64,000 bases of DNA, from sequence record PQ409239.1; one strand, written 5' to 3'. The DNA is from Klebsiella phage vB_KpnP_PW7. Positions 1,532 through 22,921 of this stretch are shown one piece after another. Every line of letters begins with the position of its first letter. The stretch's first letter is position 1. Under the pieces are notes generated by a model that was not told the origin of the DNA, did no database searches, and worked only from the letters and a program-made list of their open reading frames with translations. Made by a program: the position numbers and the translations under genes.

Positions 1532-1583
1532 GGTTAACCCTCATGTTGTAGTTTTAAGCCCCCTATATGGGGGGCTAGTTTAC

Positions 1584-5188: not shown

Positions 5189-5194
5189 AATTCC

Positions 5195-6793: not shown

Positions 6794-7478
6794 CCGTTAC
6801 ATCCTCATCATCTCGAACCAGTGAACTGCCAGCAATCACCTTAGTAGGCGTACCCGATTGAATAGCTTCAATCTGAGCTTCTGCCAGCTGGGTCAGTGTG
6901 TTCTTGAGTTCGGATAACCCAGAGTTTTCTCGCAGGTCCAGGTTGATATTGGTAACTGCATCTTTTGGTTTAGCCAAGTGAGTAAGGATAGAGTTAGCTG
7001 CCTGAGTACGAACAAGTTCACTCTGTGCAGTGTCCATTAGTTCTGCTTGGGTGTTAAGTGCCCGTTGGAACAAGTCCTGATTAACAATCCAAACCGGAAT
7101 CAGGGACTGTTCCATAATCAGATTAACAAGCTTACCTCTGTGGTAAGCAGAAGCGTAGGCAGAGATATCCTTCTCACTGGTTCCTCGTGCAACAAGTTCT
7201 GCTTGTCGTTTAGGGAAGGTCTTGAAGTAAGCATCTTTATTGCTATACCCCATATGCTTATAGGTTACGTACTGGACAGCATTCAGGTAATCCTGGGTTT
7301 TGAACTTACCATCCTTCATGACACCAGCATAGGTGATGAAGTTATTACGGATGTTCTCTGCTAGTACCTGGTCCTGTGTAACGTTGTTAACCATATCCAC
7401 CAGCTGGTCAGTAACACTGGACTTAAACTGTGGAGGTAGGGCAGCAACGATATCTTTCTTAGTGAGCATGTCAGTCAT
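6786..7478 (-). CDS. gp69-like protein, possibly a small terminase subunit.
   Basis: 230-aa ORF immediately upstream of, and overlapping, terL on the same strand. Confidence 0.35.
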   Translation of the reverse strand: MTDMLTKKDIVAALPPQFKSSVTDQLVDMVNNVTQDQVLAENIRNNFITYAGVMKDGKFKTQDYLNAVQYVTYKHMGYSNKDAYFKTFPKRQAELVARGTSEKDISAYASAYHRGKLVNLIMEQSLIPVWIVNQDLFQRALNTQAELMDTAQSELVRTQAANSILTHLAKPKDAVTNINLDLRENSGLSELKNTLTQLAEAQIEAIQSGTPTKVIAGSSLVRDDEDVTDV

Positions 7479-7630
7479 AGTCTTCCTACTTATGTCTTCT
7501 ATAAATTTATGTCTATTTACTAAGATTCTTTTCTTGGGTTGAAAGACCTTGAAGAATCCCCCGTATAGGTTTAGACTTTAGACTGTTTTTAGGCTCCTTA
7601 CAATACTAAGTCAGAGTCGCGGGAATCCTA

Positions 7631-7948
7631 TTGCCTAAAGGAAAGAAAGAGATGAGATTATTCTTTACACTGGATAGTGATACATCCCAGTACTCTGAGA
7701 TTGATATTAAAAAGCTTGCACTTATGCAAGGTGACACCATCGTGGTGACCTCCGAAGAATCCCTAGCTTACATGCAAGGTAAAATCCTAATAGATAACCT
7801 TCAGCATGTAAGTGTTAAACTAGTAACTAAAACAGCTACAATTACTAAGCCGGTCTCAGCTATTGTCTTCTACGAAAAGATACCAGAAAGTATCTCTATA
7901 GACAGAAACGTTGGTGCTGGTAACGTAGCAGTTAGTATCGTATATTGA
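7631..7948 (+). CDS. Hypothetical early protein.
   Basis: 105-aa ORF; the first plus-strand ORF after the strand switch. Confidence 0.3.
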   Translation: MPKGKKEMRLFFTLDSDTSQYSEIDIKKLALMQGDTIVVTSEESLAYMQGKILIDNLQHVSVKLVTKTATITKPVSAIVFYEKIPESISIDRNVGAGNVAVSIVY

Positions 7949-8126
7949 TTAATACTCGCCCAGGAGATGGTGGCGGGACTTGGCCATGACTAAGTTAATA
8001 ACCTCTTCAGCTACATTTCGAGCGACTCCTACTAACAGAGTACCGTTAGACTTACGGCAAGCCATCGCCCAGTTTGGATGAGTAGTATCAGAGTGAACTG
8101 ATTTGACAAACGCAAGGTATAGGAGA

Positions 8127-8160
8127 GGGAGGCCCACTGCAATGGGTCTCCCTTTTTCTT
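8127..8160 (+). terminator. Intrinsic terminator.
   Basis: Stem gggaggccc / gggtctccc (9 bp, one G-T pair), 8-nt loop, then TTTTT. Confidence 0.6.
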
Positions 8161-8179
8161 TGAACACAGGAGCTTTAAC

Positions 8180-8512
8180 ATGGTTCGAATAACTGGTGTA
8201 GATTTGGACTGGCAACGTAAGAACGGTAGACTTCCTACCTTTGATGCAGGTTCCCCGTTACTATTCTCTTCCTTCAATAAAGATGCTCAGGTTCACTTAC
8301 CTGACTGTGATGAATCATATGCCATCATGGGTAAGTGGTTACTGGATGGTATAGCACTTAACCCAGTCATACTTACCAAGACTAAGCACATACCCATAAC
8401 TCATAACCCTAATAGCTTTCACTTTGTAGAGGTTCCCGGTTATGAACTGGTGGTTAGTACTGACCCCTTCCTTAAGACATACACGTTATGCTTCGTAACT
8501 AAACACAGATAG
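8180..8512 (+). CDS. Hypothetical early protein.
   Basis: 110-aa ORF with an aggag RBS. Confidence 0.4.
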   Translation: MVRITGVDLDWQRKNGRLPTFDAGSPLLFSSFNKDAQVHLPDCDESYAIMGKWLLDGIALNPVILTKTKHIPITHNPNSFHFVEVPGYELVVSTDPFLKTYTLCFVTKHR

Positions 8513-8520
8513 GTGCCACT

Positions 8521-8853
8521 ATGAAAGTGAACTGTGCTTTACCAAACTACATAGATGGTATTGATTTAGAAGACTACTTCTTTAAGTCATTGAACCATCT
8601 TATCCTGGTTCGGAACCAAGAAGAGAAAGAACTCCTGCTGGGTGAGCTATTCATAAAGAATATCCCGCATGAGCAGCTTCGTATCTGTATCCTCCGTGAT
8701 GATGAAGTGTACCACTACACTCGTGGTACTCGTCGTCCATACTACCTGTCCCATAATGAAGTGAAGGCAGCTGTGCTGGATAATGGGGATAAGCTTATCT
8801 CCTGGGTCTCATCTTCTCCTATTTATAACGTGGTGCCTCATGACGAGAGTTGA
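8521..8853 (+). CDS. Hypothetical early protein.
   Basis: 110-aa ORF. Confidence 0.4.
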   Translation: MKVNCALPNYIDGIDLEDYFFKSLNHLILVRNQEEKELLLGELFIKNIPHEQLRICILRDDEVYHYTRGTRRPYYLSHNEVKAAVLDNGDKLISWVSSSPIYNVVPHDES

Positions 8854-9031
8854 AGCTTACAGGTACATGCTTGAGGGTAAGCAAGTTATTCATGATGGGC
8901 TACCTGGTTCTATATGGAGTTTGAGTCCGGACCGGAAAGTTAGAACAAACAATACAAGTTCTGACTGGAGTCAGGAATTTTTCAATATGGTGTTTCTACA
9001 AGATGGTTGGAAGTTAAATGACAAGAATTGA
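8840..9031 (+). CDS. Small protein, tandem paralogue A. Start adjusted to MTRVEAYRYM.
   Basis: Shares with the next ORF the pattern MTR(V/I)EAY ... LPG(S/D)(I/T)WSL(S/T)(P/S)DR ... DGW(K/S)L. Confidence 0.4.
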   Translation: MTRVEAYRYMLEGKQVIHDGLPGSIWSLSPDRKVRTNNTSSDWSQEFFNMVFLQDGWKLNDKN

Positions 9032-9203
9032 AGCATATGCCCAATTACTTATGGGTAATTTAGTATCCCATTCATCAATACCAGGGGACACCTGGAGCTT
9101 AACTTCAGATAGAGGGATTATCATAGACTTCGGTAACATGGACTTCACCGCTGAGTTTATGAACTTCACTATGTATAAAGACGGGTGGTCATTACATGAA
9201 TGA
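9018..9203 (+). CDS. Small protein, tandem paralogue B.
   Basis: 61 aa beginning MTRIEAYAQLL; paralogous to 8840-9031. Confidence 0.45.
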   Translation: MTRIEAYAQLLMGNLVSHSSIPGDTWSLTSDRGIIIDFGNMDFTAEFMNFTMYKDGWSLHE

Positions 9204-9399
9204 ACCAGTAAGGAAAGGTAATGTGTATCGCAGTCCTGCACCCACTTCTCAAGCTTACCTAGTCATGGAAGCGGGGATTAAGACTACCACCGTCATCAAC
9301 ATACGTTCTGGTAGGGAATACCTTATCAATTGTGCCGCCTTAGCTAACGAGTACGAACTGATAGGCACGCCTTACCCCACCAAAAAGGAAACTATCTAG
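9196..9399 (+). CDS. Hypothetical.
   Basis: 67-aa ORF, translationally coupled to its neighbours. Confidence 0.35.
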   Translation: MNEPVRKGNVYRSPAPTSQAYLVMEAGIKTTTVINIRSGREYLINCAALANEYELIGTPYPTKKETI

Positions 9400-9400
9400 T

Positions 9401-9733
9401 ATGAAACAAGTAAGAATAAACACAGCGCCATATCCAGTTAAACTTAATGTATGTCTGGATGCAGTCTCCTTTACTAAGGCATATCAGAAACTAAAAGGAT
9501 GTGACCCTGACTTAGCAGATACCAATGGTATAACTACCTACAGTGGTAATGTTGCTTTGATAGGAGTGTTCGCCGAGGACTTAGCAACCTTGGTTCATGA
9601 ACTCAATCACTTCTGCTTATGGGCATTTGACTATATAGGTATGCCTGTTAATTCTGCAAATAGTGAAGCTTACTGCTATTACTACGACTACTTACTTAGC
9701 CAAGTACTTGCATCTAAAGGATGGAACCAGTGA
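9401..9733 (+). CDS. Small HExxH-motif protein, possibly an ImmA/IrrE-like mini-metallopeptidase.
   Basis: 110 aa with LVHELNHFCLW (HExxH). Confidence 0.35.
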   Translation: MKQVRINTAPYPVKLNVCLDAVSFTKAYQKLKGCDPDLADTNGITTYSGNVALIGVFAEDLATLVHELNHFCLWAFDYIGMPVNSANSEAYCYYYDYLLSQVLASKGWNQ

Positions 9734-9737
9734 TAGC

Positions 9738-10010
9738 ATGAGATTATATTACTTATCAGGAGAGGGTAACCTATACGTATCCCAGGGTATTAAGTGGACC
9801 TGGCATGTAGGAAACAACCCTAACGTTCCTGTCTATGTTCACCCAGAGTTAGACTTCTACTGGATAGCGGGAGAGTGCTTACTCAGGAATAAATCAGTCA
9901 ACCTTATCAAGCTGGAACCAGGAAGCTTAGTCTCAGATGTATCCGGCCCATGTTACTTCTTAGCAGAGCACGGTCATAAAGCAGAGCAATTGTTATATAG
10001 AACTAAATAG
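9738..10010 (+). CDS. Hypothetical. Start adjusted to MRLYYLSGE.
   Basis: In-frame part of the 9663-10010 ORF after the upstream stop. Confidence 0.35.
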   Translation: MRLYYLSGEGNLYVSQGIKWTWHVGNNPNVPVYVHPELDFYWIAGECLLRNKSVNLIKLEPGSLVSDVSGPCYFLAEHGHKAEQLLYRTK

Positions 10011-10042
10011 GAGGTCTATATGTATAACCTCCTAAATTTTTT
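10009..10042 (+). terminator. Intrinsic terminator.
   Basis: Stem aggagg / cctcct with a 13-nt loop, followed by TTTTTT. Confidence 0.5.
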
Positions 10043-10236
10043 CATTGGGATTATTATCTTATGTATGTACGAGTTAGGGCCTTATAGATAGTTACTCTGC
10101 TAATTTTCTTAACCAAAAAGTAGCTCATGTATGTACGGTTGCAGTGTATTGGTGGGGCTACACCCCCTTACACTATGAGTACCCCCCCGGTACTTAGCTC
10201 TGCTATGTATGACCCTACCCCACCTTACACTGTACA

Positions 10237-10249
10237 CGTTGCTCCGCAA
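10237..10249 (+). promoter_or_regulatory. Candidate vRNAP hairpin early promoter (N4 type).
   Basis: gttgc-TCC-gcaac on the coding strand gives a GGA loop on the template strand. The layout is the same as N4 P2 (gaagc-TCC-gcttc) and sits about 45 nt upstream of the ORF at 10294. Confidence 0.55.
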
Positions 10250-10293
10250 CCTATGGACATGTCGTCCATATCACTCAACCTTGGAGCTATACA

Positions 10294-10617
10294 ATGACTA
10301 CTACTGCATCTGTACGTATGACTGCTGGAACTTTACTCGGTACAGTAAATGAAGCAGCAACTACTGTAGCTGATACCTTTGGTACTGCTACTAAAGCTGT
10401 AGGTATGCTTAACCGTTATGTCACTAAGATGTCTGACAAACAGATTATCCGTGACAAACTGGAAATGCATGAATTCACAGCGAAGCTGGTAGAAGAAACA
10501 GCTATGCAAGAAGCTGTAAGACAGAAAACTATCCTGGAATTCTGCAAAGATGAGCAGAATGGTGAACTCTATGCTTCTGCATATGACCGTTTAACCAAAA
10601 TCCTGTCTAAAGACTAA
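10294..10617 (+). CDS. Hypothetical early protein.
   Basis: 107-aa ORF downstream of the hairpin promoter. Confidence 0.45.
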   Translation: MTTTASVRMTAGTLLGTVNEAATTVADTFGTATKAVGMLNRYVTKMSDKQIIRDKLEMHEFTAKLVEETAMQEAVRQKTILEFCKDEQNGELYASAYDRLTKILSKD

Positions 10618-10624
10618 ATCAAAA

Positions 10625-10653
10625 TTGGCACTCTTCGGGGTGCCAAATTCTTT
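10625..10653 (+). terminator. Intrinsic terminator.
   Basis: Stem ttggcac / gtgccaa, then a T-rich tail. Confidence 0.45.
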
Positions 10654-10730
10654 GAATCAGATAGTTCAACTATTTATTCAAAAAGTAGAAACAAAAACCA
10701 ACTAATCCAACGGATAGTTAAGGAACAAAA

Positions 10731-10907
10731 ATGGCTAAAGCTTCCCTTTATAAACTACAAAGGATTAAAGACGGGAAGTGGATAGATATGGGACCAATCC
10801 CAGGTATATCCACAAACAAAGACCTTACATATCATGAAGCTATATCATTAGCAGCAGATTACAAAGGTTTAACTGGTACTAAAAACTACCGTCACGCTAA
10901 ACAATGA
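10731..10907 (+). CDS. Small hypothetical protein (58 aa), below the ORF-track threshold.
   Basis: ATG preceded by aaggaacaaaa; translation MAKASLYKLQRIKDGKWIDMG... Confidence 0.3.
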   Translation: MAKASLYKLQRIKDGKWIDMGPIPGISTNKDLTYHEAISLAADYKGLTGTKNYRHAKQ

Positions 10908-11038
10908 GGAAAACATAATGCCTGACTTCCGTTGCATCAAGCAATACAAACCTAAGCAGTATAAGAAAGCTAAACCTATCAATGGAGAAACTTCATTGGA
11001 ACGTTTTGTCAAACTATTCAATAACAAAGGTGACAATA

Positions 11039-11251
11039 ATGCCTAAGTATGTGTGTATCAAATCAAAGACTGAAGCTGTACCGGAAGGAACTGTAATCAT
11101 AGCAACACCTACTGGAGCTGGCCGTATTGTATTACTACGTGACAGTGATTTAGTAGTAAGCGAATACAATGACATGCCTTACTTCCAACGTGGTCAGGAA
11201 CTACCACTTACTGGGAGTTTGTGGCACTGGGAAGAATTAAAAACTGCCTAA
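11039..11251 (+). CDS. Hypothetical. Start adjusted to MPKYVCIKSK.
   Basis: In-frame ATG within the 10982-11251 ORF. Confidence 0.35.
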   Translation: MPKYVCIKSKTEAVPEGTVIIATPTGAGRIVLLRDSDLVVSEYNDMPYFQRGQELPLTGSLWHWEELKTA

Positions 11252-11255
11252 AACC

Positions 11256-11272
11256 AAGACGCTCCGCGTCTT
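11256..11272 (+). promoter_or_regulatory. Candidate vRNAP hairpin early promoter.
   Basis: aagacgc-TCC-gcgtctt: 7-bp stem, 3-nt TCC loop, no downstream T-run. Confidence 0.55.
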
Positions 11273-11383
11273 ATGGATGATGTTATGCATCCAATCCTGT
11301 ATGAAATCTTAACCTTTTGTTTGGGTGTTCTCACCGACAGAGGCACTCAGCATAAACTTAATCAATTATCTGGAGAGTACAAA

Positions 11384-11779
11384 ATGGCTATCGAATCCTT
11401 TGCAAAAACCTTTGGTAACAAATCTAACGCAGCTGCTGCAACGGCTGAATCTAAGCCTAAAGCTCAGTATTGGCTGAACATTGGCTATGTTGCTAATGAA
11501 GGCACTGAAGATGAGAAATTCATCTCTCTGCCCACGGGTATTCCACTGGATACCCAGGAGCATCTGCCGACTAACAGCAGCAATGCTGACTTCCGTGCAC
11601 TTCGTTGTGCTCAGAACGACCTGCTGGACCAGCTCATGGACTTTGCTAAAGACCTGGAACCAGGTGCTGAAGGTATCATTCAGCTGCAAGTTCAACTTCG
11701 TCGTGTGAAAGCACCGGAAGCAGATATCCCTGCTGAAGAGAATAAGTATGCACGTACTCTGTCTTTCGTAAGCAAGTAA
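11384..11779 (+). CDS. Hypothetical early protein. Start adjusted to [10 protein letters not shown].
   Basis: ORF downstream of the hairpin promoter and followed by a strong terminator. Confidence 0.4.
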
Positions 11780-11789
11780 ACGTGCATTG

Positions 11790-11819
11790 GGACTCCCTAC
11801 GGGGAGTCCTTTTATTTTT
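11790..11819 (+). terminator. Intrinsic terminator.
   Basis: Stem gggactcc / ggagtccc..., followed by TTTTATTTTT. Confidence 0.65.
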
Positions 11820-11923
11820 AACCGACGATAAACTAAGTTTAACTTTTAAGTCCTTTTCGACGAAGAGGGGATAAAAGCTAACCGTAATTTCGAGCAGCTA
11901 ACTTAGAAGAAGGAGTAAGCAAG

Positions 11924-12226
11924 ATGCGTACATTATGTAACCGTTTTAACCCACAGAAGTTAATCGCTATGACCAGCTTGTATGGTAGTGGTATGGGCTT
12001 TGCCAAACGCTGGCAGGTATCTGTATCAGATGACCGGGGTCGTTGTTATGACCATTACTTTGTAGCTAAGCCTACTCGTAAACAGATTCGTAAACTCCAC
12101 AAAGTGCGTAAGCACTACCTACCTCGTAAATGCTACGAGTGTGGCAAACGAATCAAACTGGGAGATGAGTTTTCCTGGGATGACCTTAACTATGCTCACA
12201 CTAACTGCATTGGAGCCAAGAAATGA
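11924..12226 (+). CDS. Small cysteine-rich, zinc-finger-like protein.
   Basis: 100 aa with CYECGKR ... HTNC. Confidence 0.4.
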   Translation: MRTLCNRFNPQKLIAMTSLYGSGMGFAKRWQVSVSDDRGRCYDHYFVAKPTRKQIRKLHKVRKHYLPRKCYECGKRIKLGDEFSWDDLNYAHTNCIGAKK

Positions 12227-12561
12227 ACTATCAACAAATCATCCTTAACTTCCTTAAAGCATACAAAGCATGGGTAGAGGCAGGTGCACCTAAGCACGAG
12301 ATATTTCATAAAGAGCACGGCTTGTGTACTAACCTGAACAACTATGCTCGTAGCATCTATGCAGATGACGAAGACACTGTATGGTACATCTCAGATGAGC
12401 TAGTAACTATGTTCAGAATGGATGGGTTAAGTGCTTTGATTCCATTTAACCACCCTGAAAAGGGACAGCCTATTTACTCCAATGAAGTACATCATGAAAA
12501 CCCATGGCGTATGCAGTGGGTTGCTAAAACTATCAGCAAACTAGAAGGAGAGACAAAATGA
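12223..12561 (+). CDS. Hypothetical, tandem paralogue 1.
   Basis: 112 aa. Shares FLKAYK.WVEAG.PKH ... EVHHEN.WR..WV ... KLEG with the next ORF. Confidence 0.45.
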   Translation: MNYQQIILNFLKAYKAWVEAGAPKHEIFHKEHGLCTNLNNYARSIYADDEDTVWYISDELVTMFRMDGLSALIPFNHPEKGQPIYSNEVHHENPWRMQWVAKTISKLEGETK

Positions 12562-12896
12562 GCAACATGTACATTATCCTATTGTTCCTGAAAGCCTATA
12601 AAGAATGGGTAGAAGCTGGTGTACCTAAGCATGCATACTTTGACCCTACTCATGGGCTGTGTAGTAACCTGGACCGCTTTGTCTTAAATACCTACCATGT
12701 AGGTGGCAACCGTTTAATATCGATAGGGGACAGTTTATGCTATCTATTTAAAGAAGATGGCTTAAGTGACATATTACCATTTAATAAAACGTCACTTGGT
12801 CAGCCTCGCTACATTCATGAGGTTCACCACGAGAACCTATGGCGTATTAAGTGGGTAAATGACACCATTACCAAACTTGAAGGAAAATTCAAATGA
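12558..12896 (+). CDS. Hypothetical, tandem paralogue 2.
   Basis: 112 aa; paralogue of 12223-12561. Confidence 0.45.
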   Translation: MSNMYIILLFLKAYKEWVEAGVPKHAYFDPTHGLCSNLDRFVLNTYHVGGNRLISIGDSLCYLFKEDGLSDILPFNKTSLGQPRYIHEVHHENLWRIKWVNDTITKLEGKFK

Positions 12897-13084
12897 ATCC
12901 TAATGCTGTTCCACTAGGAACCAAGGTAGTACTTGTAGTATTGGTTGTAGCAGCAATCATTGGTGTATTTGCTGTTACTGGTCCCATTGGTGGACTACTA
13001 TTCTTTGCTTTCCTGACCTACTCAGTATTAAACAAAGCACCACGTAAGGATGTTAACTCACGTGGTGACCAGGGAGACTTCTAA
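12893..13084 (+). CDS. Small membrane protein.
   Basis: 63 aa with a hydrophobic core VVLVVLVVAAIIGVFAVTG. Confidence 0.4.
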   Translation: MNPNAVPLGTKVVLVVLVVAAIIGVFAVTGPIGGLLFFAFLTYSVLNKAPRKDVNSRGDQGDF

Positions 13085-13179
13085 TGGGACCATTGGAATC
13101 ACAGATGTATATCTGGGCAATTATATGGCTAGTAATAGCATTACTGGTAGCACTAGCCTTCTACATTACAGAGGATTAA
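13084..13179 (+). CDS. Possible 31-aa membrane peptide.
   Basis: ATG overlaps the upstream stop (TAATG). Hydrophobic: IWAIIWLVIALLVALAFYI. Confidence 0.25.
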   Translation: MGPLESQMYIWAIIWLVIALLVALAFYITED

Positions 13180-13294
13180 CTAGTGACATACAGTCTTAGA
13201 TGGTGGCTTATATCCTACTGGCAATCAATGCAGATATATAGCACAGGTCTTAACTTCGAACAGAAGTACCGATTCATACAGTATGTAGTCAAAG

Positions 13295-13501
13295 TTGGAG
13301 CTAACAATGCGTAAATCATTAATCATGGGAACCAAAGAAGATGTGCTCACGTCTACTAGACTCCGTAACAAAAATGAACAGAGTAACCGCTATACTAAAC
13401 AAGCTAATACTATGGCAGTGCACAATACTGGTAATACTGTGTCACCTGTTGGTATTAGTAAGCGAACTATTGTGACCTTCAATCACCCGTGCATTAGCTA
13501 A
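13295..13501 (+). CDS. Hypothetical.
   Basis: 68-aa ORF followed by a terminator. Confidence 0.3.
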   Translation: MELTMRKSLIMGTKEDVLTSTRLRNKNEQSNRYTKQANTMAVHNTGNTVSPVGISKRTIVTFNHPCIS

Positions 13502-13506
13502 TATAA

Positions 13507-13535
13507 GAGAGTCCTTCGGGACTCTTTTTATTTTG
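13507..13535 (+). terminator. Intrinsic terminator.
   Basis: agagtcc-ttcg-ggactct followed by a T-run. Confidence 0.65.
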
Positions 13536-13576
13536 TTTTTCAGATAGAGATATTCAGGAGATAGTTATAGATAACC

Positions 13577-13885
13577 ATGAACGAGTTAATTCAAATTGAA
13601 CCAACAAGGTCTGCTATATCTGACCGTAATGTACGCATTCACTATCCTATGCCTTTGCATAATCCCTTTAAATCAAACGAGCGAGTTACAGTAGCTGAAT
13701 CACTATTAGCTTATGAAGCTTGGCTACGTAACCGCCTGATTTCAGGGGATAAACTGATAGTTGCTGAAATGACTCGTATTATCGAGTTATTACAGGATGG
13801 CACAAGTAAACCAGTAGGCTTAATCGGATATGCTGGTGAAATAGACGTAATCCGTAAAATTATCAGTGAGGTGCTTAATCAATGA
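13577..13885 (+). CDS. DUF4326-like protein (NPF motif).
   Basis: 102 aa with PLHNPFK ... AYEAWL. Resembles the paralogue at 15053. Confidence 0.4.
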   Translation: MNELIQIEPTRSAISDRNVRIHYPMPLHNPFKSNERVTVAESLLAYEAWLRNRLISGDKLIVAEMTRIIELLQDGTSKPVGLIGYAGEIDVIRKIISEVLNQ

Positions 13886-14238
13886 AACTAATCGTAGCTG
13901 GTGGAAGAGATTTTGCTAATACTGGGTTAATGATTGAAGCCTTAACTAAATTAGTTGAGGAAAACAAAATAGATTCAAATCCGGAATTAGTATGTGGTAT
14001 GGCTCGTGGTGCTGATATGCTTGCATATAGCCTATGGGCTAACCACAATATGAAAATCTATACATTCCCGGCAGATTGGAAAACTCATACAAGAAGTGCT
14101 GGTTATATTCGCAATGCAGAAATGGGTAATTTTGCAGATGTGCTTGTTGCCTTCTGGGATGGTAAGTCCAGAGGAACCAAGCACATGATTGAATATATGC
14201 AAAAGCTTGGAAAACCTACTCACGTAATAGGATACTAA
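13882..14238 (+). CDS. SLOG / DprA-like Rossmann-fold protein (DUF2493-like).
   Basis: 118 aa with MKLIVAGGRDF ... CGMARGADMLAYSLWA, a DprA/LOG-type glycine-rich motif. Start overlaps the upstream gene. Confidence 0.5.
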   Translation: MKLIVAGGRDFANTGLMIEALTKLVEENKIDSNPELVCGMARGADMLAYSLWANHNMKIYTFPADWKTHTRSAGYIRNAEMGNFADVLVAFWDGKSRGTKHMIEYMQKLGKPTHVIGY

Positions 14239-14239
14239 T

Positions 14240-14464
14240 ATGTCAGCCGAAATCGTAGATAAACGAAATATGGAGTTGGTACCTGCTTCTGTATTAAAGC
14301 AAGGTGACCACATAATTGACCAGTTTAAAAATGTACTGGTTGTTACCAACAACAGTAAAAACTATATGAACTGTACTTCTATTTCTACAGGAGAACCATT
14401 TACATTTTCTTCTGACAAATTAGTACAACAAGTTCATTTAGTAGTCTCGGTGCACTTAATATGA
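14240..14464 (+). CDS. Hypothetical.
   Basis: 74-aa ORF. Confidence 0.35.
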   Translation: MSAEIVDKRNMELVPASVLKQGDHIIDQFKNVLVVTNNSKNYMNCTSISTGEPFTFSSDKLVQQVHLVVSVHLI

Positions 14465-14739
14465 AGATAATTACCTTCCCTACTCATAGAGTTATTTTCT
14501 ATATGGAACAAGAAATTGAAGTTCCATTGTGGGCAAGGTATGTAGCTGCATATCCAGGTAATTATGGCAAGTTAGTATCTTTAATAGGATTTGCCAATAA
14601 GCCTCGTGTAACTAAGAATGGAGTATGGCTCATACCTAAAGTATTCAAAGACCGTCAACAAGAGGAAATAGGCGTTATCAGACACTCTGATATTAACAAA
14701 ACCAACTTTCATAAAACGCTACAAGGCCCATTCAAATGA
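14461..14739 (+). CDS. Hypothetical.
   Basis: 92-aa ORF, coupled. Confidence 0.35.
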   Translation: MKIITFPTHRVIFYMEQEIEVPLWARYVAAYPGNYGKLVSLIGFANKPRVTKNGVWLIPKVFKDRQQEEIGVIRHSDINKTNFHKTLQGPFK

Positions 14740-15056
14740 AACAAATAGCTATTATCCATGACGTAGGGTATGCAGATATTGACAAAATGATGAAGTCCAT
14801 AGATTACGTAAGTAATTACAGTAAAACATTTGATGGAGACTTCTTACTGCATATTCACAAAGACTCAGCATTACTGCCTATTATTGAAGGCTCAGGACTT
14901 CCATATAAAGCAGTGGATGAGTTCATTGAAGAACCAGATGTGATGATTGCATTCTCTACCTGGGATGAGGGTACATTCGCTAAGTCTTCATTAATGAAAC
15001 AATGGATGGCACGTAAGCCCGTATATGCATTTCAATTAGCTAAGGAGGCTCCATGA
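14736..15056 (+). CDS. Hypothetical.
   Basis: 106-aa ORF, coupled. Confidence 0.35.
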   Translation: MKQIAIIHDVGYADIDKMMKSIDYVSNYSKTFDGDFLLHIHKDSALLPIIEGSGLPYKAVDEFIEEPDVMIAFSTWDEGTFAKSSLMKQWMARKPVYAFQLAKEAP

Positions 15057-15454
15057 AAGTAATTAAATTGGGTGATAACACTAATGCTTTACTTGGCGTA
15101 GCAACCTGCCCAATAGTAATTATTAATAAACACCATGGCAAACAAGGTGAATATATTGGGCGAGGTTCCCCATTAGGTAATCCTTACTCACATATGGAGG
15201 GTACCAAAGCCCAATTTAAAACAAAAACCAGAGAGCAAGCAATCGAACTCTACAGAGTATGGCTCAATGAGCAAATAGCTAACAACAATCCTGCTGTATT
15301 AGCTGAACTCAATCGCCTTGGTAATAAAGCCATTGACGACAAAGGGCTGACCTTACAGTGCTTCTGTTACCCGAAACCGTGCCATGGTGAGGTGATTAAA
15401 GAGAAGCTTGTACAGGCTATGTACACTTACTTTGAGGAGCATCCAAATGGCTAA
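15053..15454 (+). CDS. DUF4326-like protein.
   Basis: 133 aa with GRGSPLGNPYSH ... ELYRVWL ... CYPKPCHGEV. Confidence 0.4.
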   Translation: MKVIKLGDNTNALLGVATCPIVIINKHHGKQGEYIGRGSPLGNPYSHMEGTKAQFKTKTREQAIELYRVWLNEQIANNNPAVLAELNRLGNKAIDDKGLTLQCFCYPKPCHGEVIKEKLVQAMYTYFEEHPNG

Positions 15455-15791
15455 TAAAGCTATTAAGCATCCCCAACTGTGGGTTATACGGCATATGCCG
15501 TCAGGTAAATGCATACCTGAACCCAGCTCTGTAGGGGAATCCCGTTATACCTGGGTAGAACCAAGTGATACAGGCATACCTCGACTGTTCCGTAGTGAGG
15601 ACTCAGCCAAACGAGCATTAACTCAATGGCTTAGAGGCAGACACCATCTGGAAACTGATATAGAGGATGCTTGCGAATGGGGCAAATCCTACGAAGTAGT
15701 GGTTGGTACCTACGCAGAGCCTGTATCTACCCGCGAAAGGGCAGAAATGGAAGTAGTACCCGTATCCTTACATACAAGCAATGAGGAGTAA
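15447..15791 (+). CDS. Hypothetical. Start adjusted to MANKAIKH.
   Basis: In-frame ATG of the 15408-15791 ORF next to the upstream stop. Confidence 0.35.
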   Translation: MANKAIKHPQLWVIRHMPSGKCIPEPSSVGESRYTWVEPSDTGIPRLFRSEDSAKRALTQWLRGRHHLETDIEDACEWGKSYEVVVGTYAEPVSTRERAEMEVVPVSLHTSNEE

Positions 15792-15999
15792 TAGTATGTT
15801 AGCTAAAGCAGGTACACGTAAAGACTATGTTCGTAAAGAACTTAAGTTCCAGCACGAAGGTAAGGAGTACGTAGTAGTAATCCAATGTACCAATAGGAAG
15901 CTGAAAGAGGCTGAAAATAACGCAACTTTTAGTTGTGGTGCAAAATTAAATTCATGCGAACTGTTCGATATGACAACTTATAGGAAATCCAATAAATGA
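15781..15999 (+). CDS. Hypothetical.
   Basis: 72-aa ORF. Confidence 0.3.
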   Translation: MRSNSMLAKAGTRKDYVRKELKFQHEGKEYVVVIQCTNRKLKEAENNATFSCGAKLNSCELFDMTTYRKSNK

Positions 16000-16193
16000 G
16001 TAACAAAGTATGTACCTGTGGTAAAGGCTATGTATCCCGCTGGGATAACCAATGTGGTAAATGCCGTACTAATCGTCAGAACAAACAGCACTCTTACATT
16101 CTGAGTCATGACTACCTTTGGGTAGGCGTTGATATGAATGATGAGCAAGCTGTATTGGCTCACTATAAAGAACTCAGAAGGACTCTCAAATGA
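15996..16193 (+). CDS. Zinc-ribbon-like small protein.
   Basis: CTCGKG ... CGKCR. Confidence 0.35.
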   Translation: MSNKVCTCGKGYVSRWDNQCGKCRTNRQNKQHSYILSHDYLWVGVDMNDEQAVLAHYKELRRTLK

Positions 16194-16570
16194 AAGAGGT
16201 ATTTGTATTCGGTAGTAACCTCGCTGGTATCCATGGTGCTGGTGCTGCTAAGACTGCATATAAGAAGCATGGCGCTCGCTGGGGTATGGGCGTTGGTCAC
16301 TATGGTTGCAGCTATGCTATCCCAACCAAAGACCAGCACATCAAGACCATGGCCTTAGAGGACATCAGAACCTTCGTAGAAGGCTTTATCATCTATGCAG
16401 CCTCACACCCAGAATGGGACTTTAAAGTCACCAGAGTGGGTTGTGGCCTAGCAGGATTGGATGATGCTGTTATGGCATCTATGTTCAAACATGCAACTGG
16501 TAACTGTTCATTCGACCTGGCATGGCAAAGCTATCTGGGTGATGAACATACCTACTGGGGAACTTTCTAA
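16190..16570 (+). CDS. Rossmann-like glycine-rich protein, possibly SLOG-like.
   Basis: VFVFGSNLAGIHGAGAAKTA at the N-terminus. Confidence 0.3.
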   Translation: MKEVFVFGSNLAGIHGAGAAKTAYKKHGARWGMGVGHYGCSYAIPTKDQHIKTMALEDIRTFVEGFIIYAASHPEWDFKVTRVGCGLAGLDDAVMASMFKHATGNCSFDLAWQSYLGDEHTYWGTF

Positions 16571-16770
16571 TGACCAAACAAGAAAGGAATTTAAACGCTG
16601 CCTGGGGTGTTTATATTCATGGGCGTCTTCAGTTAATTGAAGAGGCTATTCGTGCAGGCAAACCAGATGCTGAAATAGTAGATGTACTCTTTGGCGAGAG
16701 CAGCATCAATGTAGCCAAACAAACCATTTCAGCAGCAAGAGCATATATTGCGAGGGAAAACGATGAGTAG
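16570..16770 (+). CDS. Hypothetical.
   Basis: 66-aa ORF. Confidence 0.3.
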   Translation: MTKQERNLNAAWGVYIHGRLQLIEEAIRAGKPDAEIVDVLFGESSINVAKQTISAARAYIARENDE

Positions 16771-17041
16771 CTATGAAGAATTATATGGTGCTCACGTAGT
16801 TTACAAGAGCAAGGTATTTGCTGAACTTTATTCAACACTTCAGAGCATGATTAAAGCTCGAACCAAAGCAGGTTACGTTAACGGTATTACCCACATAGTA
16901 GTGCCTGAACAATTTGCTAATGTGCTTTGGATAAGGGATACACCTTGCATCAAAGTAAAAGTATGGCCCTCTAAGGGACGTTATGTAAACACACAGTATA
17001 TCCCTGGCAGACTGTATATCAGTTTTGAAACTAAGCGTTAA
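16748..17041 (+). CDS. Hypothetical.
   Basis: 97-aa ORF. Confidence 0.3.
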   Translation: MRGKTMSSYEELYGAHVVYKSKVFAELYSTLQSMIKARTKAGYVNGITHIVVPEQFANVLWIRDTPCIKVKVWPSKGRYVNTQYIPGRLYISFETKR

Positions 17042-17044
17042 GTA

Positions 17045-17061
17045 AAGCAGCTCCGCTGCTT
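17045..17061 (+). promoter_or_regulatory. Candidate vRNAP hairpin promoter upstream of the RNAPII genes.
   Basis: aagcagc-TCC-gctgctt: 7-bp stem with a TCC loop, about 30 nt upstream of the ATG at 17092. Confidence 0.55.
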
Positions 17062-17091
17062 GTGGTAATTAAACTAATTGAGGAATAAGCG

Positions 17092-17907
17092 ATGACTACC
17101 AAGTTAGAACATCAGATGCAACTCGAACTGTTATTCAGCAAGAACCAACTCATGCCTCGTATGAGGAAAGAGTTCGAAGAATCAGAAGATATCGACTTTG
17201 TCGGTTTCTTCAAAAGCATTGATATCGACCCTAAGTTTGGTATCGATGCAATGGTACAAATGGCTCTGCACAAACGAGCCGACCTACCTACCTTAGTAGG
17301 AAGCCTGTGGCATCACTATGACAATGCACAGGATGTAGCAGACGCCTTATTTAAAATGGCGTCAGAAGACTGCTTTGACTATGACCCTAAGATTGACAAG
17401 TTCATTGTCCGTTACGGGATTAGTCAGGATGTACAGCTGGAACTGGAAGCATTCCAGTATCCACTACCAATGGTAGTTCAGCCTAAAGCTGTTACCTGCA
17501 ACCGAGATACCGGTTACTTAGTAAGTAAGGGCAGCATTATCCTGAAAAAGAACCATACGGAAGATGATGTGTGCTTAGACCACATCAACCGTATGAACTC
17601 TATAAAGCTATCCATCAACTGGGACGTAGCCAAGATGGTTAAGAATAGCTGGAGAAACCTGGATAAATGCAAAGAAGGTGAAACTCGTGAAGAGTATCAG
17701 AAACGAGTAAAAGCCTTTGAGAAGTATGACCGAACAGCTCATGAAGTAATGCAGCTGTTGACCCAAGAAGGAAATGAATTCCATCTGACGCACAAGTATG
17801 ACAAACGTGGTCGTACTTACTCACAGGGCTATCATATCAACTATCAGGGTACTAGCTGGAACAAAGCAGTACTCGAATTTGCAGATAAGGAATATGTAAA
17901 TGAATAG
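17092..17907 (+). CDS. Phage RNA polymerase II small subunit (N4 gp15-like).
   Basis: 271 aa, against 269 aa for N4 p4. Sits upstream of the T7-like RNAP catalytic subunit. Confidence 0.55.
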   Translation: MTTKLEHQMQLELLFSKNQLMPRMRKEFEESEDIDFVGFFKSIDIDPKFGIDAMVQMALHKRADLPTLVGSLWHHYDNAQDVADALFKMASEDCFDYDPKIDKFIVRYGISQDVQLELEAFQYPLPMVVQPKAVTCNRDTGYLVSKGSIILKKNHTEDDVCLDHINRMNSIKLSINWDVAKMVKNSWRNLDKCKEGETREEYQKRVKAFEKYDRTAHEVMQLLTQEGNEFHLTHKYDKRGRTYSQGYHINYQGTSWNKAVLEFADKEYVNE

Positions 17908-18196
17908 CAAACAGAAAATGTTCTACCCACTGGTAGCAAAAGAAGGTGGCATGGGCCTGCTCACTGTAGGCGAGGACGGTACCTTACTCTACTCAGCAAT
18001 TGATACTAAAACGGGTAATCCCGTAACTGTGGTGCTGTACTTCAACGAACAGACCAGCAGTACTCTGCTTAATACCATTGAGGAACTGGCTACTATCCAG
18101 AAGAAGTATGCAGAATCTCGTGTAGACAATGAACCAGCTGAAGAATCATTCCATGCGATGCTGGAAGCATTAAAACCATCCGGTAAACCTAACTAA
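17900..18196 (+). CDS. Hypothetical, inserted between the RNAPII subunits.
   Basis: 98-aa ORF. Confidence 0.35.
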   Translation: MNSKQKMFYPLVAKEGGMGLLTVGEDGTLLYSAIDTKTGNPVTVVLYFNEQTSSTLLNTIEELATIQKKYAESRVDNEPAEESFHAMLEALKPSGKPN

Positions 18197-18206
18197 TTAA
18201 TCCATT

Positions 18207-19457
18207 ATGCAGGGCATAAGCCCAAGAAGCAGGAGAAACAAAATGCAAACTTTTACTGGCCGTGAATACCTGAAAATTGATATTGCTAACAACTATGGCC
18301 TGGACAAGAAAGACTGGGATGAGCGTATTGCATGGTTCGACCGCAACGAGCACAACTTAGGTGCTCTGGTTAAAGAAGCAGATGAACCAGCACTGTTCTA
18401 TGCAGGTGTTAACGCATGGAAGGCTGTACAAGCTGGTGAGCCTATTGGCTATCCTATTGCACTGGATGCTACGTCATCTGGCTTACAGATTCTGGCATGT
18501 CTGACTGGTGACCGTCAGGCTGCTGAACTGTGCAACGTAGTGAATTACTACGAAGACGGTAAGCCTAAACGTCGTGACGGCTATACAGTCATCTATAAGG
18601 CTATGCTGGAAGTACTGGGTGAGTCCGGGCGTATTAAGCGTGACGACTGTAAGCAGGCAATCATGACTGCTCTGTATGGCTCAGAAGCAATGCCTAAACA
18701 GGTATTCGGTGAGGGTATCTTGCTCAAAGTGTTCGAGAACATTATGAGTGAGAAGGCACCAGCAGTATGGGAACTCAACAAGTTCTGGCTGCAATGTGGC
18801 AACCCTGAAGCTACTGAATACCACTGGGTATTGCCAGACGGCTTCAACGTACATATCAAAGTAATGGTACCAGAAGTACAGACAGTACATTTCCTGAATA
18901 AGCCTTACGACGTTGTTCGTATGGTTCAGGGAGTGGAAGAGAAGACACGTATGTTGTCTGCTAACACCACTCACAGTCTGGATGGCATGGTAGTACGTGA
19001 ACTGATTCGTCGTTGTAACTATGACCCAGAGCTGGTGAAGTATGTTAAGCAGCTGTGCTACGGTGTAAACGTAGACCAGGTAACTATAGAGGGCAATGCC
19101 GAGATGGTAGAGCAACTGTGGACTTACTATAAGGACACTGGCTACCTCTCTGCACGTATCTTTGACTACCTGGATGCAGGCACAATTCACTTAGTAGACC
19201 GTACAGCCATTATAGAACTGATTGAGTCACTGCCAGCTAAACCGTTTAAGGTTCTGTCTGTGCATGATTGCTTCCGTTGCCTGCCTCAGTATGGCAATGA
19301 CCTGCGTCGTCAGTACAACATTCAATTAGCTACTATTGCTAAGTCCGACCTGCTGTCATTCATCATGTCTCAAGTACTGGGTGAAAAGGTTACCATTGGT
19401 AAGCTGGACCCAGACCTGTGGAAAGACATTGGAGAAACAGAATATGCACTCTCATAA
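18207..19457 (+). CDS. Phage RNA polymerase II large subunit (T7-like single-subunit RNAP palm; N4 gp16-like).
   Basis: IALDATSSGLQILACLTGD matches T7 motif A (DGSCSGIQH); SVHDCF matches motif C (HDSFG). 416 aa against 404 aa for N4. Confidence 0.75.
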   Translation: MQGISPRSRRNKMQTFTGREYLKIDIANNYGLDKKDWDERIAWFDRNEHNLGALVKEADEPALFYAGVNAWKAVQAGEPIGYPIALDATSSGLQILACLTGDRQAAELCNVVNYYEDGKPKRRDGYTVIYKAMLEVLGESGRIKRDDCKQAIMTALYGSEAMPKQVFGEGILLKVFENIMSEKAPAVWELNKFWLQCGNPEATEYHWVLPDGFNVHIKVMVPEVQTVHFLNKPYDVVRMVQGVEEKTRMLSANTTHSLDGMVVRELIRRCNYDPELVKYVKQLCYGVNVDQVTIEGNAEMVEQLWTYYKDTGYLSARIFDYLDAGTIHLVDRTAIIELIESLPAKPFKVLSVHDCFRCLPQYGNDLRRQYNIQLATIAKSDLLSFIMSQVLGEKVTIGKLDPDLWKDIGETEYALS

Positions 19458-19605
19458 CTTACCAATCCCAAAACTATACGCATACATCAGAGGACAGTAT
19501 CGATTTAAAGCTCCTGGTGTATGCACTAGACTATGGACAGATGAAAATTGGATTGCCTTTATTGATTCATACAAAGGTTGGACTGTAAAAGTATGTTAAA
19601 ACTTA

Positions 19606-19636
19606 GCCACTCCTTCGGGAGTGGCTTATTTTTTTG
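19606..19636 (+). terminator. Intrinsic terminator.
   Basis: gccactcc-ttcg-ggagtggc followed by TTATTTTTTTG. Confidence 0.7.
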
Positions 19637-19653
19637 TTTGAATTCATAATAGC

Positions 19654-19669
19654 TAGGCAATATTGCCTA
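19654..19669 (+). promoter_or_regulatory. Perfect 16-bp palindrome, an operator-like site.
   Basis: taggcaat|attgccta, immediately 5' of the aagagga RBS of the Big_2 gene. Confidence 0.4.
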
Positions 19670-19682
19670 AGAGGATAGATAC

Positions 19683-20198
19683 ATGCCAACTTTATACGCT
19701 AGTTTAAAACAAGAAACCGGTGAAGTAGATGTTAAGTTTACCAATGCAGTAGGCGAGGGATTCGTTGCAATTGGTTCATTTGTTCACCCAGATGCAACCT
19801 ACCCAGATAGCTACGTTATTTATCACGGAGTACGTGACCTGCTTTATAAACGCAAAGCCTCTGACCCAAGTCAGGTAGGATTCTGGCCGGATAACATCAC
19901 GGATATGCAGAGCATTACCATTAAAGCAGAGGAACCAGTAGCGGTTACAGGTGTAACTCTTAATAAGAGCACCAGCACCGGCCAAGTTGGTGGAAACGAA
20001 ACGTTGGTTGTTACTGTAGCACCAACCGACGCTACTGATAAATCAGTAGTATGGAGCACCTCAGATGCTACTAAAGCCACGGTAGACCAAACCGGTAAAG
20101 TAGTACTGACCGGGGTAGGTACTGTAACCATCACTGCAACCACTAAAGATGGTGGCTACACAGCCAGCTGTGAGTACACAGTGACTGAAGCTGCATAA
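19683..20198 (+). CDS. Big_2 (bacterial Ig-like) domain protein, likely a capsid decoration or adhesin (N4 gp17-like position).
   Basis: VTGVTLNKSTSTGQVGGNETLVVTVAPTDATDKSVVWSTSDATKATVDQTGKVVLTGVGTVTITATT is a classic Big_2 repeat. Confidence 0.6.
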   Translation: MPTLYASLKQETGEVDVKFTNAVGEGFVAIGSFVHPDATYPDSYVIYHGVRDLLYKRKASDPSQVGFWPDNITDMQSITIKAEEPVAVTGVTLNKSTSTGQVGGNETLVVTVAPTDATDKSVVWSTSDATKATVDQTGKVVLTGVGTVTITATTKDGGYTASCEYTVTEAA

Positions 20199-20255
20199 GC
20201 TAGTTTTATAGTTTTCTTGGGGTTATTAACCTCGCCATAAACAATCCTTATCTTT

Positions 20256-20285
20256 TGCCCACCCTTGCGGTGGGCATTTTTTTGG
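20256..20285 (+). terminator. Intrinsic terminator.
   Basis: tgcccacc-cttgc-ggtgggca followed by TTTTTTTTT. Confidence 0.7.
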
Positions 20286-20336
20286 CTATTATGTAATTCT
20301 TTATATGACCATCCACCCTTAACTAAGTAGGTATAT

Positions 20337-20606
20337 ATGCGTAAGATTGCTTTAATCGGATGTGGTGCAGTAATTGGCCTGTTGGCTCTGACTGCCCACT
20401 ATGTAGTGGAACGTCTGTTCGGTTTCAACCTGCCGGACTTCACGGTATACATCGCTGCTGCGATTGCAGCCCCTGTATTCGGGGTAGTGCAATTTGACCA
20501 TAAGGCGTTTAGCCGAGCCTTCGCTGAAAAATCTAAGCTGGTCATCGACCGCCTAGGTTTTCGAACGTGTGGGGTCGGTTGTCTAAGCCGACCAGAATAC
20601 ATGTAA
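20337..20606 (+). CDS. Small membrane protein.
   Basis: 89 aa with two hydrophobic segments. Confidence 0.4.
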   Translation: MRKIALIGCGAVIGLLALTAHYVVERLFGFNLPDFTVYIAAAIAAPVFGVVQFDHKAFSRAFAEKSKLVIDRLGFRTCGVGCLSRPEYM

Positions 20607-20632
20607 ACAAACACTACATTCGCAAGTAAAAA

Positions 20633-20667
20633 ACCCCGCCATTGTGCGGGGTTTTTGTTTTTTTGGT
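20633..20667. terminator. Intrinsic terminator, bidirectional by sequence.
   Basis: AAAAAA accccgc-cattgt-gcggggt TTTTTGTTTTTTT. Confidence 0.7.
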
Positions 20668-20891
20668 TTTCATACTTTGGAGCAAAAACGTTGAAACTTA
20701 CTAATTCTCAATCTGTTTTTCTTAAAATGGTTAAGTCTGGTACTGCACCACGTGCACTGTCCAACAAAACAGCCCGTGCTCTTAACAAGATGGGTTTGAT
20801 TAAACCCAACGCTATGTACGGCTGGATTCTTACCACTGCTGGCTTACAAGCCCTCGGAGAGTTAAGCAATGCAGGAGAAAAACAGGCGTAA
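20655..20891 (+). CDS. Hypothetical. The likely start is the internal MVKSGTAPRAL.
   Basis: ORF upstream of, and overlapping, the HNH gene. Confidence 0.3.
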   Translation: MFFWFSYFGAKTLKLTNSQSVFLKMVKSGTAPRALSNKTARALNKMGLIKPNAMYGWILTTAGLQALGELSNAGEKQA

Positions 20892-21219
20892 GACCCTGAT
20901 AGATAGAATCCAGTCAAGAGTTAAGCTGCAAGACTTAGGGCATACCATCAATGGTCAACCCAGCCTGTGCCATATCTGGACTGGTTCTCATTCTGGAAAT
21001 GGTAGAGGTGGGCAATATGGTCGTATTTCCGTAAATGGAATTACTTCTGCTACCCACATCGTAGTGTTTACCCACTATCACGGTTATATACCGTGCAGGA
21101 TGCAGGTAGACCACCTGTGTAATAACCGACTGTGCTGTAACCCTGAACATCTGGAATTGGTAACTCACCAGGAGAACCAGAAGAGAAGGGCTGCACGTAA
21201 GAAAGGAACCAAGAAATGA
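20869..21219 (+). CDS. HNH homing-type endonuclease.
   Basis: VDHLCNNRLCCNPEHLELVTHQENQ is an HNH_3 motif. Confidence 0.75.
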   Translation: MQEKNRRKTLIDRIQSRVKLQDLGHTINGQPSLCHIWTGSHSGNGRGGQYGRISVNGITSATHIVVFTHYHGYIPCRMQVDHLCNNRLCCNPEHLELVTHQENQKRRAARKKGTKK

Positions 21220-21455
21220 TAACTCCTGACCAGAGTGCTATGGTTATGGACGACTTAGACGTACAGTATTTTATTCATGGTTATCACGACAATGTTCAAA
21301 TTAACTGCCAAACTTTGGCAGAAAAAACCAATGCACTAATAAGGTGTGATAGGAAACTGCAACAATTTGAGCAACATAATTGGAATATGTCGTCTACTCA
21401 CAGAAGAGATAGCATACACCTAAAACTACTCAAATTGTGGGGAACCAGAAAATGA
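21216..21455 (+). CDS. Hypothetical.
   Basis: 79-aa ORF. Confidence 0.3.
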   Translation: MITPDQSAMVMDDLDVQYFIHGYHDNVQINCQTLAEKTNALIRCDRKLQQFEQHNWNMSSTHRRDSIHLKLLKLWGTRK

Positions 21456-21643
21456 AAGAAGATTGCTTTTTTGCATTCGTGGCTGGTGGTGTCATTGGTG
21501 TGATAGTCATGGGTTTACTCATGTCCCATGTTGGACCTAACTCCAAAGCCAAAGTTGATGCTCGTAAAGCTGAATGTGAGCTTAATATTCCACGTAACCA
21601 AAACTGCGTAATGCAGTTTGTACCAGAAAAGGTAAAACAATGA
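21437..21643 (+). CDS. Small membrane protein.
   Basis: AFVAGGVIGVIVMGLLM. Confidence 0.35.
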   Translation: MGNQKMKEDCFFAFVAGGVIGVIVMGLLMSHVGPNSKAKVDARKAECELNIPRNQNCVMQFVPEKVKQ

Positions 21644-22185: not shown

Positions 22186-22210
22186 ACAAACAGAAACAGG
22201 AGAAGCAATT

Positions 22211-22911: not shown

Positions 22912-22921
22912 GGGGTTTTAG

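Follow-up and report, generated by a model that had tools for sequence, protein, structure and literature searches.

The three promoters P1 to P3 of phage N4 are DNA hairpins that are read by the virion RNA polymerase (vRNAP) of that phage (Haynes & Rothman-Denes 1985, Glucksmann 1992, Dai 1998, Davydova 2007, Gleghorn 2008, in PMC4496689). These promoters are conserved from -17 to +1 and contain a GC-rich heptamer that is centred at -11 and has inverted repeats on either side (PMC4496689). The N4 vRNAP recognises -11A/G, -10G, -8G and +1C of the template strand, and extrusion of the hairpin needs a G:C closing pair plus a 5' G and a 3' A in the loop (PMC4496689). The numbering used here is set by the N4 P2 template oligonucleotide, which reads CC(+2,+1)-AAAA-GAAGC-GGA-GCTTC (PMC13492108). 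Putative early promoters P1 to P4 have also been listed for phage KP8, where they were identified by similarity to N4 (Table 1 of Morozova et al. 2019, PMC6950046). Here we describe three hairpins of this kind in a stretch of 64,000 nucleotides from Klebsiella phage vB_KpnP_PW7 (PQ409239.1), which is called the window below. Judged by its sequence, the window is from a Klebsiella N4-like podovirus (Schitoviridae, Enquatrovirinae, Kaypoctavirus), and in a megablast search its 9-20 kb portion is approximately 92% identical to phi1_146050, K60PH164C1, VLCpiP4b and KP8.

The three hairpins are located on the plus strand and each has a 3-nucleotide TCC loop that is closed by G-C pairs, as the initial annotation had proposed. 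Site 1 (GTTGC-TCC-GCAAC, 10238-10250) has a 5-bp stem, and site 2 (AAGACGC-TCC-GCGTCTT, 11256-11272) and site 3 (AAGCAGC-TCC-GCTGCTT, 17045-17061) each have a 7-bp stem. Sites 2 and 3 had been placed exactly by that annotation, whereas site 1 had been placed one nucleotide too low, at 10237-10249. It had also put the hairpins in intergenic positions ahead of plus-strand open reading frames (ORFs), and all three indeed occupy short gaps between such ORFs. Site 2 begins 4 nucleotides past the stop codon of the ORF at 10982-11251 and lies 13 nucleotides ahead of the ATG of gp2, and site 3 begins 3 nucleotides past the stop codon of the ORF at 16748-17041 and lies 31 nucleotides ahead of the ATG of RNAP1.

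We consider it very likely that these sites represent P1, P2 and P3, the early promoters of this Klebsiella N4-like phage, and that they are read by an injected vRNAP. This reading, which agrees with the N4 vRNAP-type promoters originally suggested, is supported by orthology with N4 P1-P3, by the published recognition determinants, by a conserved vRNAP and by the annotation of the same sequences in KP8. P1 extends from 10233 to 10260 (-22 to +6), with its loop centre (-11) at 10244 and a predicted +1 G at 10255. P2, the gp2 promoter, extends from 11253 to 11280, with its loop centre at 11264 and a predicted +1 G at 11275, and P3, the promoter of the RNAPII operon, extends from 17042 to 17069, with its loop centre at 17053 and a predicted +1 G at 17064. 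Their covariance-model scores are 38.2, 39.1 and 35.5 bits, respectively.

The closest described counterparts of these sites are found in N4 itself. N4 P1 (GTTGC-TTC-GCAAC, N4 90-102) precedes gp1, N4 P2 (AAGAAGC-TCC-GCTTCTT, N4 557-573) precedes gp2 and N4 P3 (AAGCTGC-TCC-GCAGCTT, N4 4546-4562) precedes RNAP1. The three positions are the same in the window, P1 being some 90 nucleotides from the left end in both phages, and the flanks of the window sites and the N4 sites align base for base. Because the hairpins match, the downstream genes are orthologous and the flanks align, the window sites are orthologues of N4 P1, P2 and P3. Both phages have stems of 5-7 bp with a 3-nucleotide loop, the GC-TCC-GC core at P2 and P3, the template bases -8G, -9C, -10G, -11G and -12A, a T at -1 and GG at +1/+2. 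The P2 sequence of N4 that had been cited for comparison (gaagc-GGA-gcttc on the template strand) is correct.

The differences between the two sets of promoters are few. The P1 loop is TTC in N4 and TCC in the window, and both are permitted since position -11 may be A or G. From N4 to the window, compensatory changes have replaced an A:T pair with a C:G pair in the P2 stem and a T:A pair with an A:T pair in the P3 stem. In addition, P3 is located 4.5 kb from the left end in N4 and 6.9 kb from it in the window, where the early region is longer. When the first 12 kb of N4 were scanned, only three sites of this class were found; the number given for N4 in a 2026 cryo-EM paper is three in the introduction but 'four early promoters (P1-P4)' in the discussion (PMC13492108).

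All three sites carry the features that N4 is known to require. Their template strand reads 5'-CC-N4-(G)NNGC-GGA-GC... (N4 here standing for four bases of any kind), which provides -8G, -9C, -10G, -11G, -12A, -13G and +1C, and the 5'-GGA-3' loop of the template strand is closed by a C(-9):G(-13) pair in each case. Stems of 5, 7 and 7 bp thus carry a 3-nucleotide template-strand loop. The sites are expected to fall within the leftmost 10% or so of the linear genome, at 0.09, 1.1 and 6.9 kb from its putative left end. The spacing of about 11 nucleotides between loop centre and start that had been suggested for these sites is correct by comparison with N4, and predicts RNAs that begin with GG at 10255, 11275 and 17064.

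A cognate polymerase is encoded by the same genome. The vRNAP gene (48844-59307, minus strand; 3487 amino acids), whose presence had been pointed out at the outset, is the inferred reader of the three promoters. Its product matches the solved N4 vRNAP structures over the polymerase domain and is 72% identical to N4 gp50 overall and 77% identical in the polymerase domain. It retains the -11 recognition element, the specificity loop and the intercalating hairpin, and its catalytic aspartates are conserved. Among the nine residues that contact the promoter in the N4 vRNAP crystal structures, eight are identical (K114, R119, W129, K268, K849, K850, D901 and R904), and the ninth, K267 in N4, is N in the window.

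The same sequences have already been published as early promoters for KP8, a close relative, and so the feature itself is known. The KP8 RefSeq record (NC_048700) bears four 'early promoter' features. The string given for KP8 P1, ACGTTGCTCCGCAACCTATGGA, occurs exactly at window 10236-10257, that of KP8 P2 occurs exactly at 11256-11277, and KP8 P4 matches 21 of 22 bases at 17045-17066. KP8 differs from the window in having a fourth promoter and a gene for 71 amino acids (KP8 962-1241) just ahead of the gp2 promoter.

Similar hairpins are present throughout the related genomes whose early regions were compared, which are those of KP8, phi1_146050, VLCpiP4a, VLCpiP4b, Kpn16-P2, the Gamaleyavirus phages PE007 and SP5M, and the distant relative Zuri. 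Every Enquatrovirinae genome in the comparison contains such hairpins, three or four in number, in which the core is GC-TCC-GC and a T-GG is found at a constant distance. Despite a protein divergence of 25-30%, the genomes of N4, Kaypoctavirus and Gamaleyavirus keep the hairpins in orthologous places. An alignment of 34 sites, drawn from 10 genomes, shows no variation in the core nucleotides G9, C10, T11, C13, G14 and C15 or in the GG at +1/+2. By contrast with this fixed core, the bases of the outer stem vary freely with pairing kept, among sites that had been preselected as hairpins, and three to four types of Watson-Crick pair are found at the third and fourth positions of the stem (7-17 and 8-16).

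No other perfect hairpin with a TCC loop and a stem of 5 bp or longer is present in the 64 kb of the window. The heptamer GCTCCGC likewise has exactly three copies (10241, 11261 and 17050), all of them on the plus strand and all forming hairpin cores. We used 300 dinucleotide-preserving shuffles as a control. With both strands counted, a shuffled sequence contained on average 0.047 hairpins that combine the GC-TCC-GC core with a stem of 5 bp or more, compared with the three observed. Not one of these shuffles reached three such hairpins, and none had even one 7-bp example, of which the window has two. When folded as single-stranded DNA, the template strand adopts the expected hairpin at each site, with energies of -3.6, -6.9 and -6.4 kcal/mol for sites 1, 2 and 3, respectively.

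The initial annotation had called for a scan of the whole genome for TCC-loop hairpins, which might have turned out to be equally frequent in coding regions. The scan revealed no further ones, and so this is not the case. Hairpins with a GGA loop on the plus strand are present at 18158, 29242 and 32264, where they lack G-C closing pairs and lie inside coding sequence. We rejected these as minus-strand TCC hairpin promoters owing to their lack of G-C closure, their coding location and the absence of a covariance-model match. An unfiltered run of the covariance model over the whole window returned only the three sites, which scored 35-39 bits, and the next best match reached 12.8 bits; the window's own sites are in the training set of the model, and therefore this run is evidence on further sites and no independent support for the three. 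The 12.8-bit match (11618-11643, E 0.2) was discarded as a candidate fourth promoter because it does not have the core and falls within the part of the genome that encodes gp2.

Four other explanations for the hairpins were weighed, and even when taken jointly they are improbable. The hairpins could be terminators, or could stabilise the RNA 3' ends of upstream genes, as might be expected of sites 2 and 3 given how soon they follow the stop codons of the ORFs at 10982-11251 and 16748-17041. This proposal is very hard to sustain, however, in that no T-run is present at any of the sites, the bases after the stems being CTATGG, ATGGAT and GTGGTA. The sites are also absent from a terminator scan that does find hairpins with T-runs at 10625, 11789, 13505 and 19605, all collinear with N4. 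Moreover, termination would leave unexplained both the asymmetric, invariant TCC loop and the fixed T-GG that is located 8-10 nucleotides downstream. The statement that these hairpins are not terminators, made when they were first noticed, thus holds for all three. Just as improbable is the idea that the sites are not extruded but serve in double-stranded form as palindromic operators, to which a dimeric repressor or activator binds. Palindromes of 13-17 bp would also exhibit 'covariation' between half-sites, and so covariation alone does not separate this reading from that of hairpin promoters. Yet the outer stems differ within the genome (GTTGC, AAGACGC and AAGCAGC) while pairing is kept, which is unlike the target of a single sequence-specific dimer. 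The central TCC is asymmetric and has a constant strand, the flanking T-GG is one-sided, and the same sequences in N4 work as template-strand hairpins (PMC4496689).

Hairpin promoters might instead be read by RNAPII, as has been proposed for the middle promoters of phage LUZ7, which are GC-rich hairpins with a loop of 3-4 nucleotides (PMC9163698). We regard this as a very slim prospect, because the RNAPII genes are driven from P3 and the gene of the cofactor gp2 from P2, and expression of both has to precede RNAPII itself. Furthermore, the orthologous N4 sites are vRNAP promoters, N4 RNAPII uses different promoters that initiate with T, and the contact residues of vRNAP are conserved. The least likely explanation of all is that the hairpins are chance inverted repeats without function. 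The heptamer GCTCCGC taken alone is not over-represented, with three copies observed and 2.7 expected on both strands, but three hairpins never arose together in the shuffles, and those of the window are all on one strand, intergenic and conserved at orthologous positions. A scan for sigma-70 promoters (-35/-10 hexamers with a 16-18 nucleotide spacer) found no plus-strand site at or beside the three hairpins.

Several points do weigh against the assignment of the three sites as vRNAP promoters. The substitution of K267 by N lies in the element responsible for melting 7-bp stems at their base. The promoters of KP8 were called by N4 similarity alone. The template-strand fold of site 1, considered by itself, is only marginally better than that of shuffled sequences (z = -1.6), compared with z = -3.6 for site 2 and z = -4.6 for site 3. 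Finally, paired cells make up 92.5% of the 34-site alignment versus 22-48% when the partners are slid, and the covariation score is 0.457 versus 0.106 for shuffled and at most 0.076 for slid partners, but the sites were picked as hairpins and come from related genomes, such that these values overstate independence. Position-anchored swaps are free of that selection, an example being P3, which has AAGCAGC in the window and AAGCTGC in N4.

If the three sites are indeed vRNAP promoters, then the mechanism is likely to resemble that of N4, and the steps given here are drawn by homology from that phage (PMC4496689). Once the left DNA end has entered the cell, gyrase-driven negative supercoiling would extrude the inverted repeats, each forming a small cruciform, and the non-template hairpin would be melted by the host SSB. 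The template hairpin, with its 5-7 bp stem and 5'-GGA-3' loop, would remain folded and be bound by the injected 3487-amino acid vRNAP through its -11 recognition element and specificity loop. The polymerase would read -11G, -10G, -9C and -8G, and would start RNA with GG (GTP) at 10255, 11275 and 17064, in each case 11 nucleotides past the loop centre. P1 would then serve gp1, P2 would serve the RNAPII cofactor gp2 and the small genes that follow it, and P3 would serve both RNAPII subunits. Extrusion, the dependence on SSB and gyrase, and the actual start sites are all expected by analogy with experiments on N4.

The genes downstream of these promoters fit their assignment to N4 P1-P3. The first early gene after P1 is the gp1 orthologue (10294-10617, plus strand), whose product is 85% identical in amino acid sequence to that of N4. 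The orthologue of gp2, which is an RNAPII cofactor in N4, follows at 11285-11779 on the plus strand and is 75% identical to N4 gp2 when read from the homologous ATG. This ATG corresponds to +11 of the predicted P2 transcript, and an in-frame ATG at 11273 precedes the predicted start. The RNAPII operon (17092-19457, plus strand) is located downstream of P3 and consists of RNAP1 (17092-17907, plus strand; 74% identical to N4 RNAP1), a small ORF (17900-18196, plus strand) and RNAP2 (18207-19457, plus strand; 72% identical to N4 RNAP2). The third hairpin had been said to stand in front of a split RNAPII operon, and the presence of both orthologues behind site 3 agrees with this.

There are four plus-strand terminator-like sites with counterparts in N4, located at 10625-10646 (collinear with N4 493), 11789-11810 (N4 1079), 13505-13528 (N4 2522) and 19605-19626 (N4 6680-6705). 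The last of these is a hairpin with a T-run that follows RNAP2, and it is likely to be the right boundary of the early region. Terminator-like hairpins are roughly threefold enriched relative to shuffles, both in window 7400-23000 (31 versus 10.1) and in N4 1-9000 (14 versus 5.1). Conversely, sigma-70-like matches are rarer than in shuffles of the same two regions, with 22 versus 36.9 (sd 7.2) in the window and 13 versus 27.8 (sd 5.1) in N4.

We infer that the left genome terminus is at 10150, where a terminal repeat would start, from the fact that position 1 of the N4 record (TGGTGGGGCTACA...) and position 3 of KP8 both align there. The KP8 record begins at window 10148, similarity to the N4 left end ends upstream of 10150, and the sequence just ahead of this position has a weak match to the last 100 nucleotides or so of the N4 record. 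P1 would then be some 89 nucleotides from the left genome end. No second copy of the left end is present inside the window or inside the N4 record, each record containing one copy of the repeat. A 56-codon ORF at 10127-10297 overlaps P1 and spans the putative terminus, and it would be whole only at a right end joined to the terminal repeat. This ORF is probably spurious; small ORFs are annotated at the same place in phi1_146050 and Zuri.

An early region of approximately 7.6-19.5 kb had originally been proposed. Its right limit is reasonable, given the terminator-like hairpin at 19605-19626 and its N4 counterpart, but its left limit is not, given the putative terminus at 10150. The interval 7631-10149 holds a block of small plus-strand ORFs between the leftward terminase genes and the putative terminus, and a sigma-70-like site (7577-7604) is present in the divergent gap that precedes this block. 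Two of its ORFs, at 7631-7948 and 8180-8512, match gp70 and gp71 from the right end of N4, where a small plus-strand cluster (gp70-72) lies past the leftward late genes. Similarly, KP8 has ten rightward ORFs at its 3' end (PMC6950046). These gp70 and gp71 matches, together with the N4 and KP8 terminus alignments, indicate that the 7.6-10.1 kb block, which is upstream of P1 in the window, belongs to the right end of the linear genome. The covariance-model scan found no hairpin promoter in this block. We therefore rejected 7.6 kb as the left boundary, since the block is homologous to the right-end gp70/71 of N4 and lies beyond the putative terminus, and we place the early region between approximately 10.15 kb and the terminator-like hairpin at 19605-19626 (about 19.6 kb).

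Another feature of these early units is a stem-loop at the very start of two of the predicted transcripts. The P1 transcript would open at +1 with GGAC-atgtc-GTCC (10255-10267), and the P2 transcript would open with GGATG-atgttatg-CATCC (11275-11292), whose loop contains the gp2 AUG (+11) without a Shine-Dalgarno sequence. Stem-loops at +1 recur, with other sequences, in N4 (105-121 and 576-593), in Gamaleyavirus, in Zuri (GGGCA..TGCCC, approximately 106-118 and 753-766), in Erwinia phage Ea9-2 (TGGCA..TGCCA) and in Salmonella phage SP-058 (GAGCA..TGCTC). However, they are only modestly better than shuffles (z of -2.2 to -4.4), and no such structure is present at P3 or at the extra promoter of the KP8 type. 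We found no description of this feature in the N4-like phage literature that was searched. A functional role within the P1 and P2 early units is a tentative idea that we hold to be rather doubtful. One possibility is that the stem-loop peels the nascent RNA off the single-stranded template, and others are that it might protect the 5' end or gate the translation of gp2.

The fourth hairpin promoter and the gene of about 70 amino acids that precede the gp2 promoter in KP8 are also found in VLCpiP4a/b, Kpn16-P2 and the Gamaleyavirus phages. This unit is absent from the window, phi1_146050 and N4. When window 11256-11280 is compared with KP8 962-1246, the difference is a 263-bp indel that is flanked by two promoter hairpins and has its junction inside a hairpin, such that the window site consists of the KP8-P2 stem joined to the sequence downstream of KP8-P3. 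This architecture suggests that copies of the promoter have recombined, or that a promoter and a gene form a mobile cassette. Perhaps hairpin promoters act as recombination joints for such cassettes.

More distant relatives use hairpins with other loops. Early starts in LUZ7, as mapped by ONT-cappable-seq, are at a G downstream of hairpins with a 3-nucleotide loop (PMC9163698), and early hairpin promoters have been predicted for LIT1/PEV2 (PMC3715699). These phages share with the window a stem of at least 4 bp, a 3-nucleotide loop, a preference for G as the start and a dependence on injected vRNAP (PMC9163698, PMC3715699). LUZ7 differs in that it belongs to another subfamily and has nine early starts located 13-14 nucleotides from the hairpin centre, as well as another core (PMC9163698). 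In Zuri, the hairpins at 89-101 and 736-748 have a GC-TGC-GC core. There are five C-TTC-G hairpins in SP-058 (28-40, 657-669, 2885-2901, 2938-2952 and 5793-5805), each of which is followed by GG, and Ea9-2 has a hairpin with an apparent 4-nucleotide loop, CCATGC-TTAC-GCATGG, at approximately 72-87. Promoter specificity appears to have drifted between schitovirus subfamilies.

This genome follows the textbook N4 strategy, in which an injected polymerase reads extruded DNA hairpins, and the finding carries little weight as a discovery. What is gained is of use for annotation, in the form of coordinates for the promoters, the start sites, the terminus and the early region. The GC-GGA-GC core and the polymerase contacts are tightly held across the Enquatrovirinae, whereas other schitovirus lineages have moved to other loops. 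This contrast between lineages in core and loop could guide experiments in which specificities are swapped.

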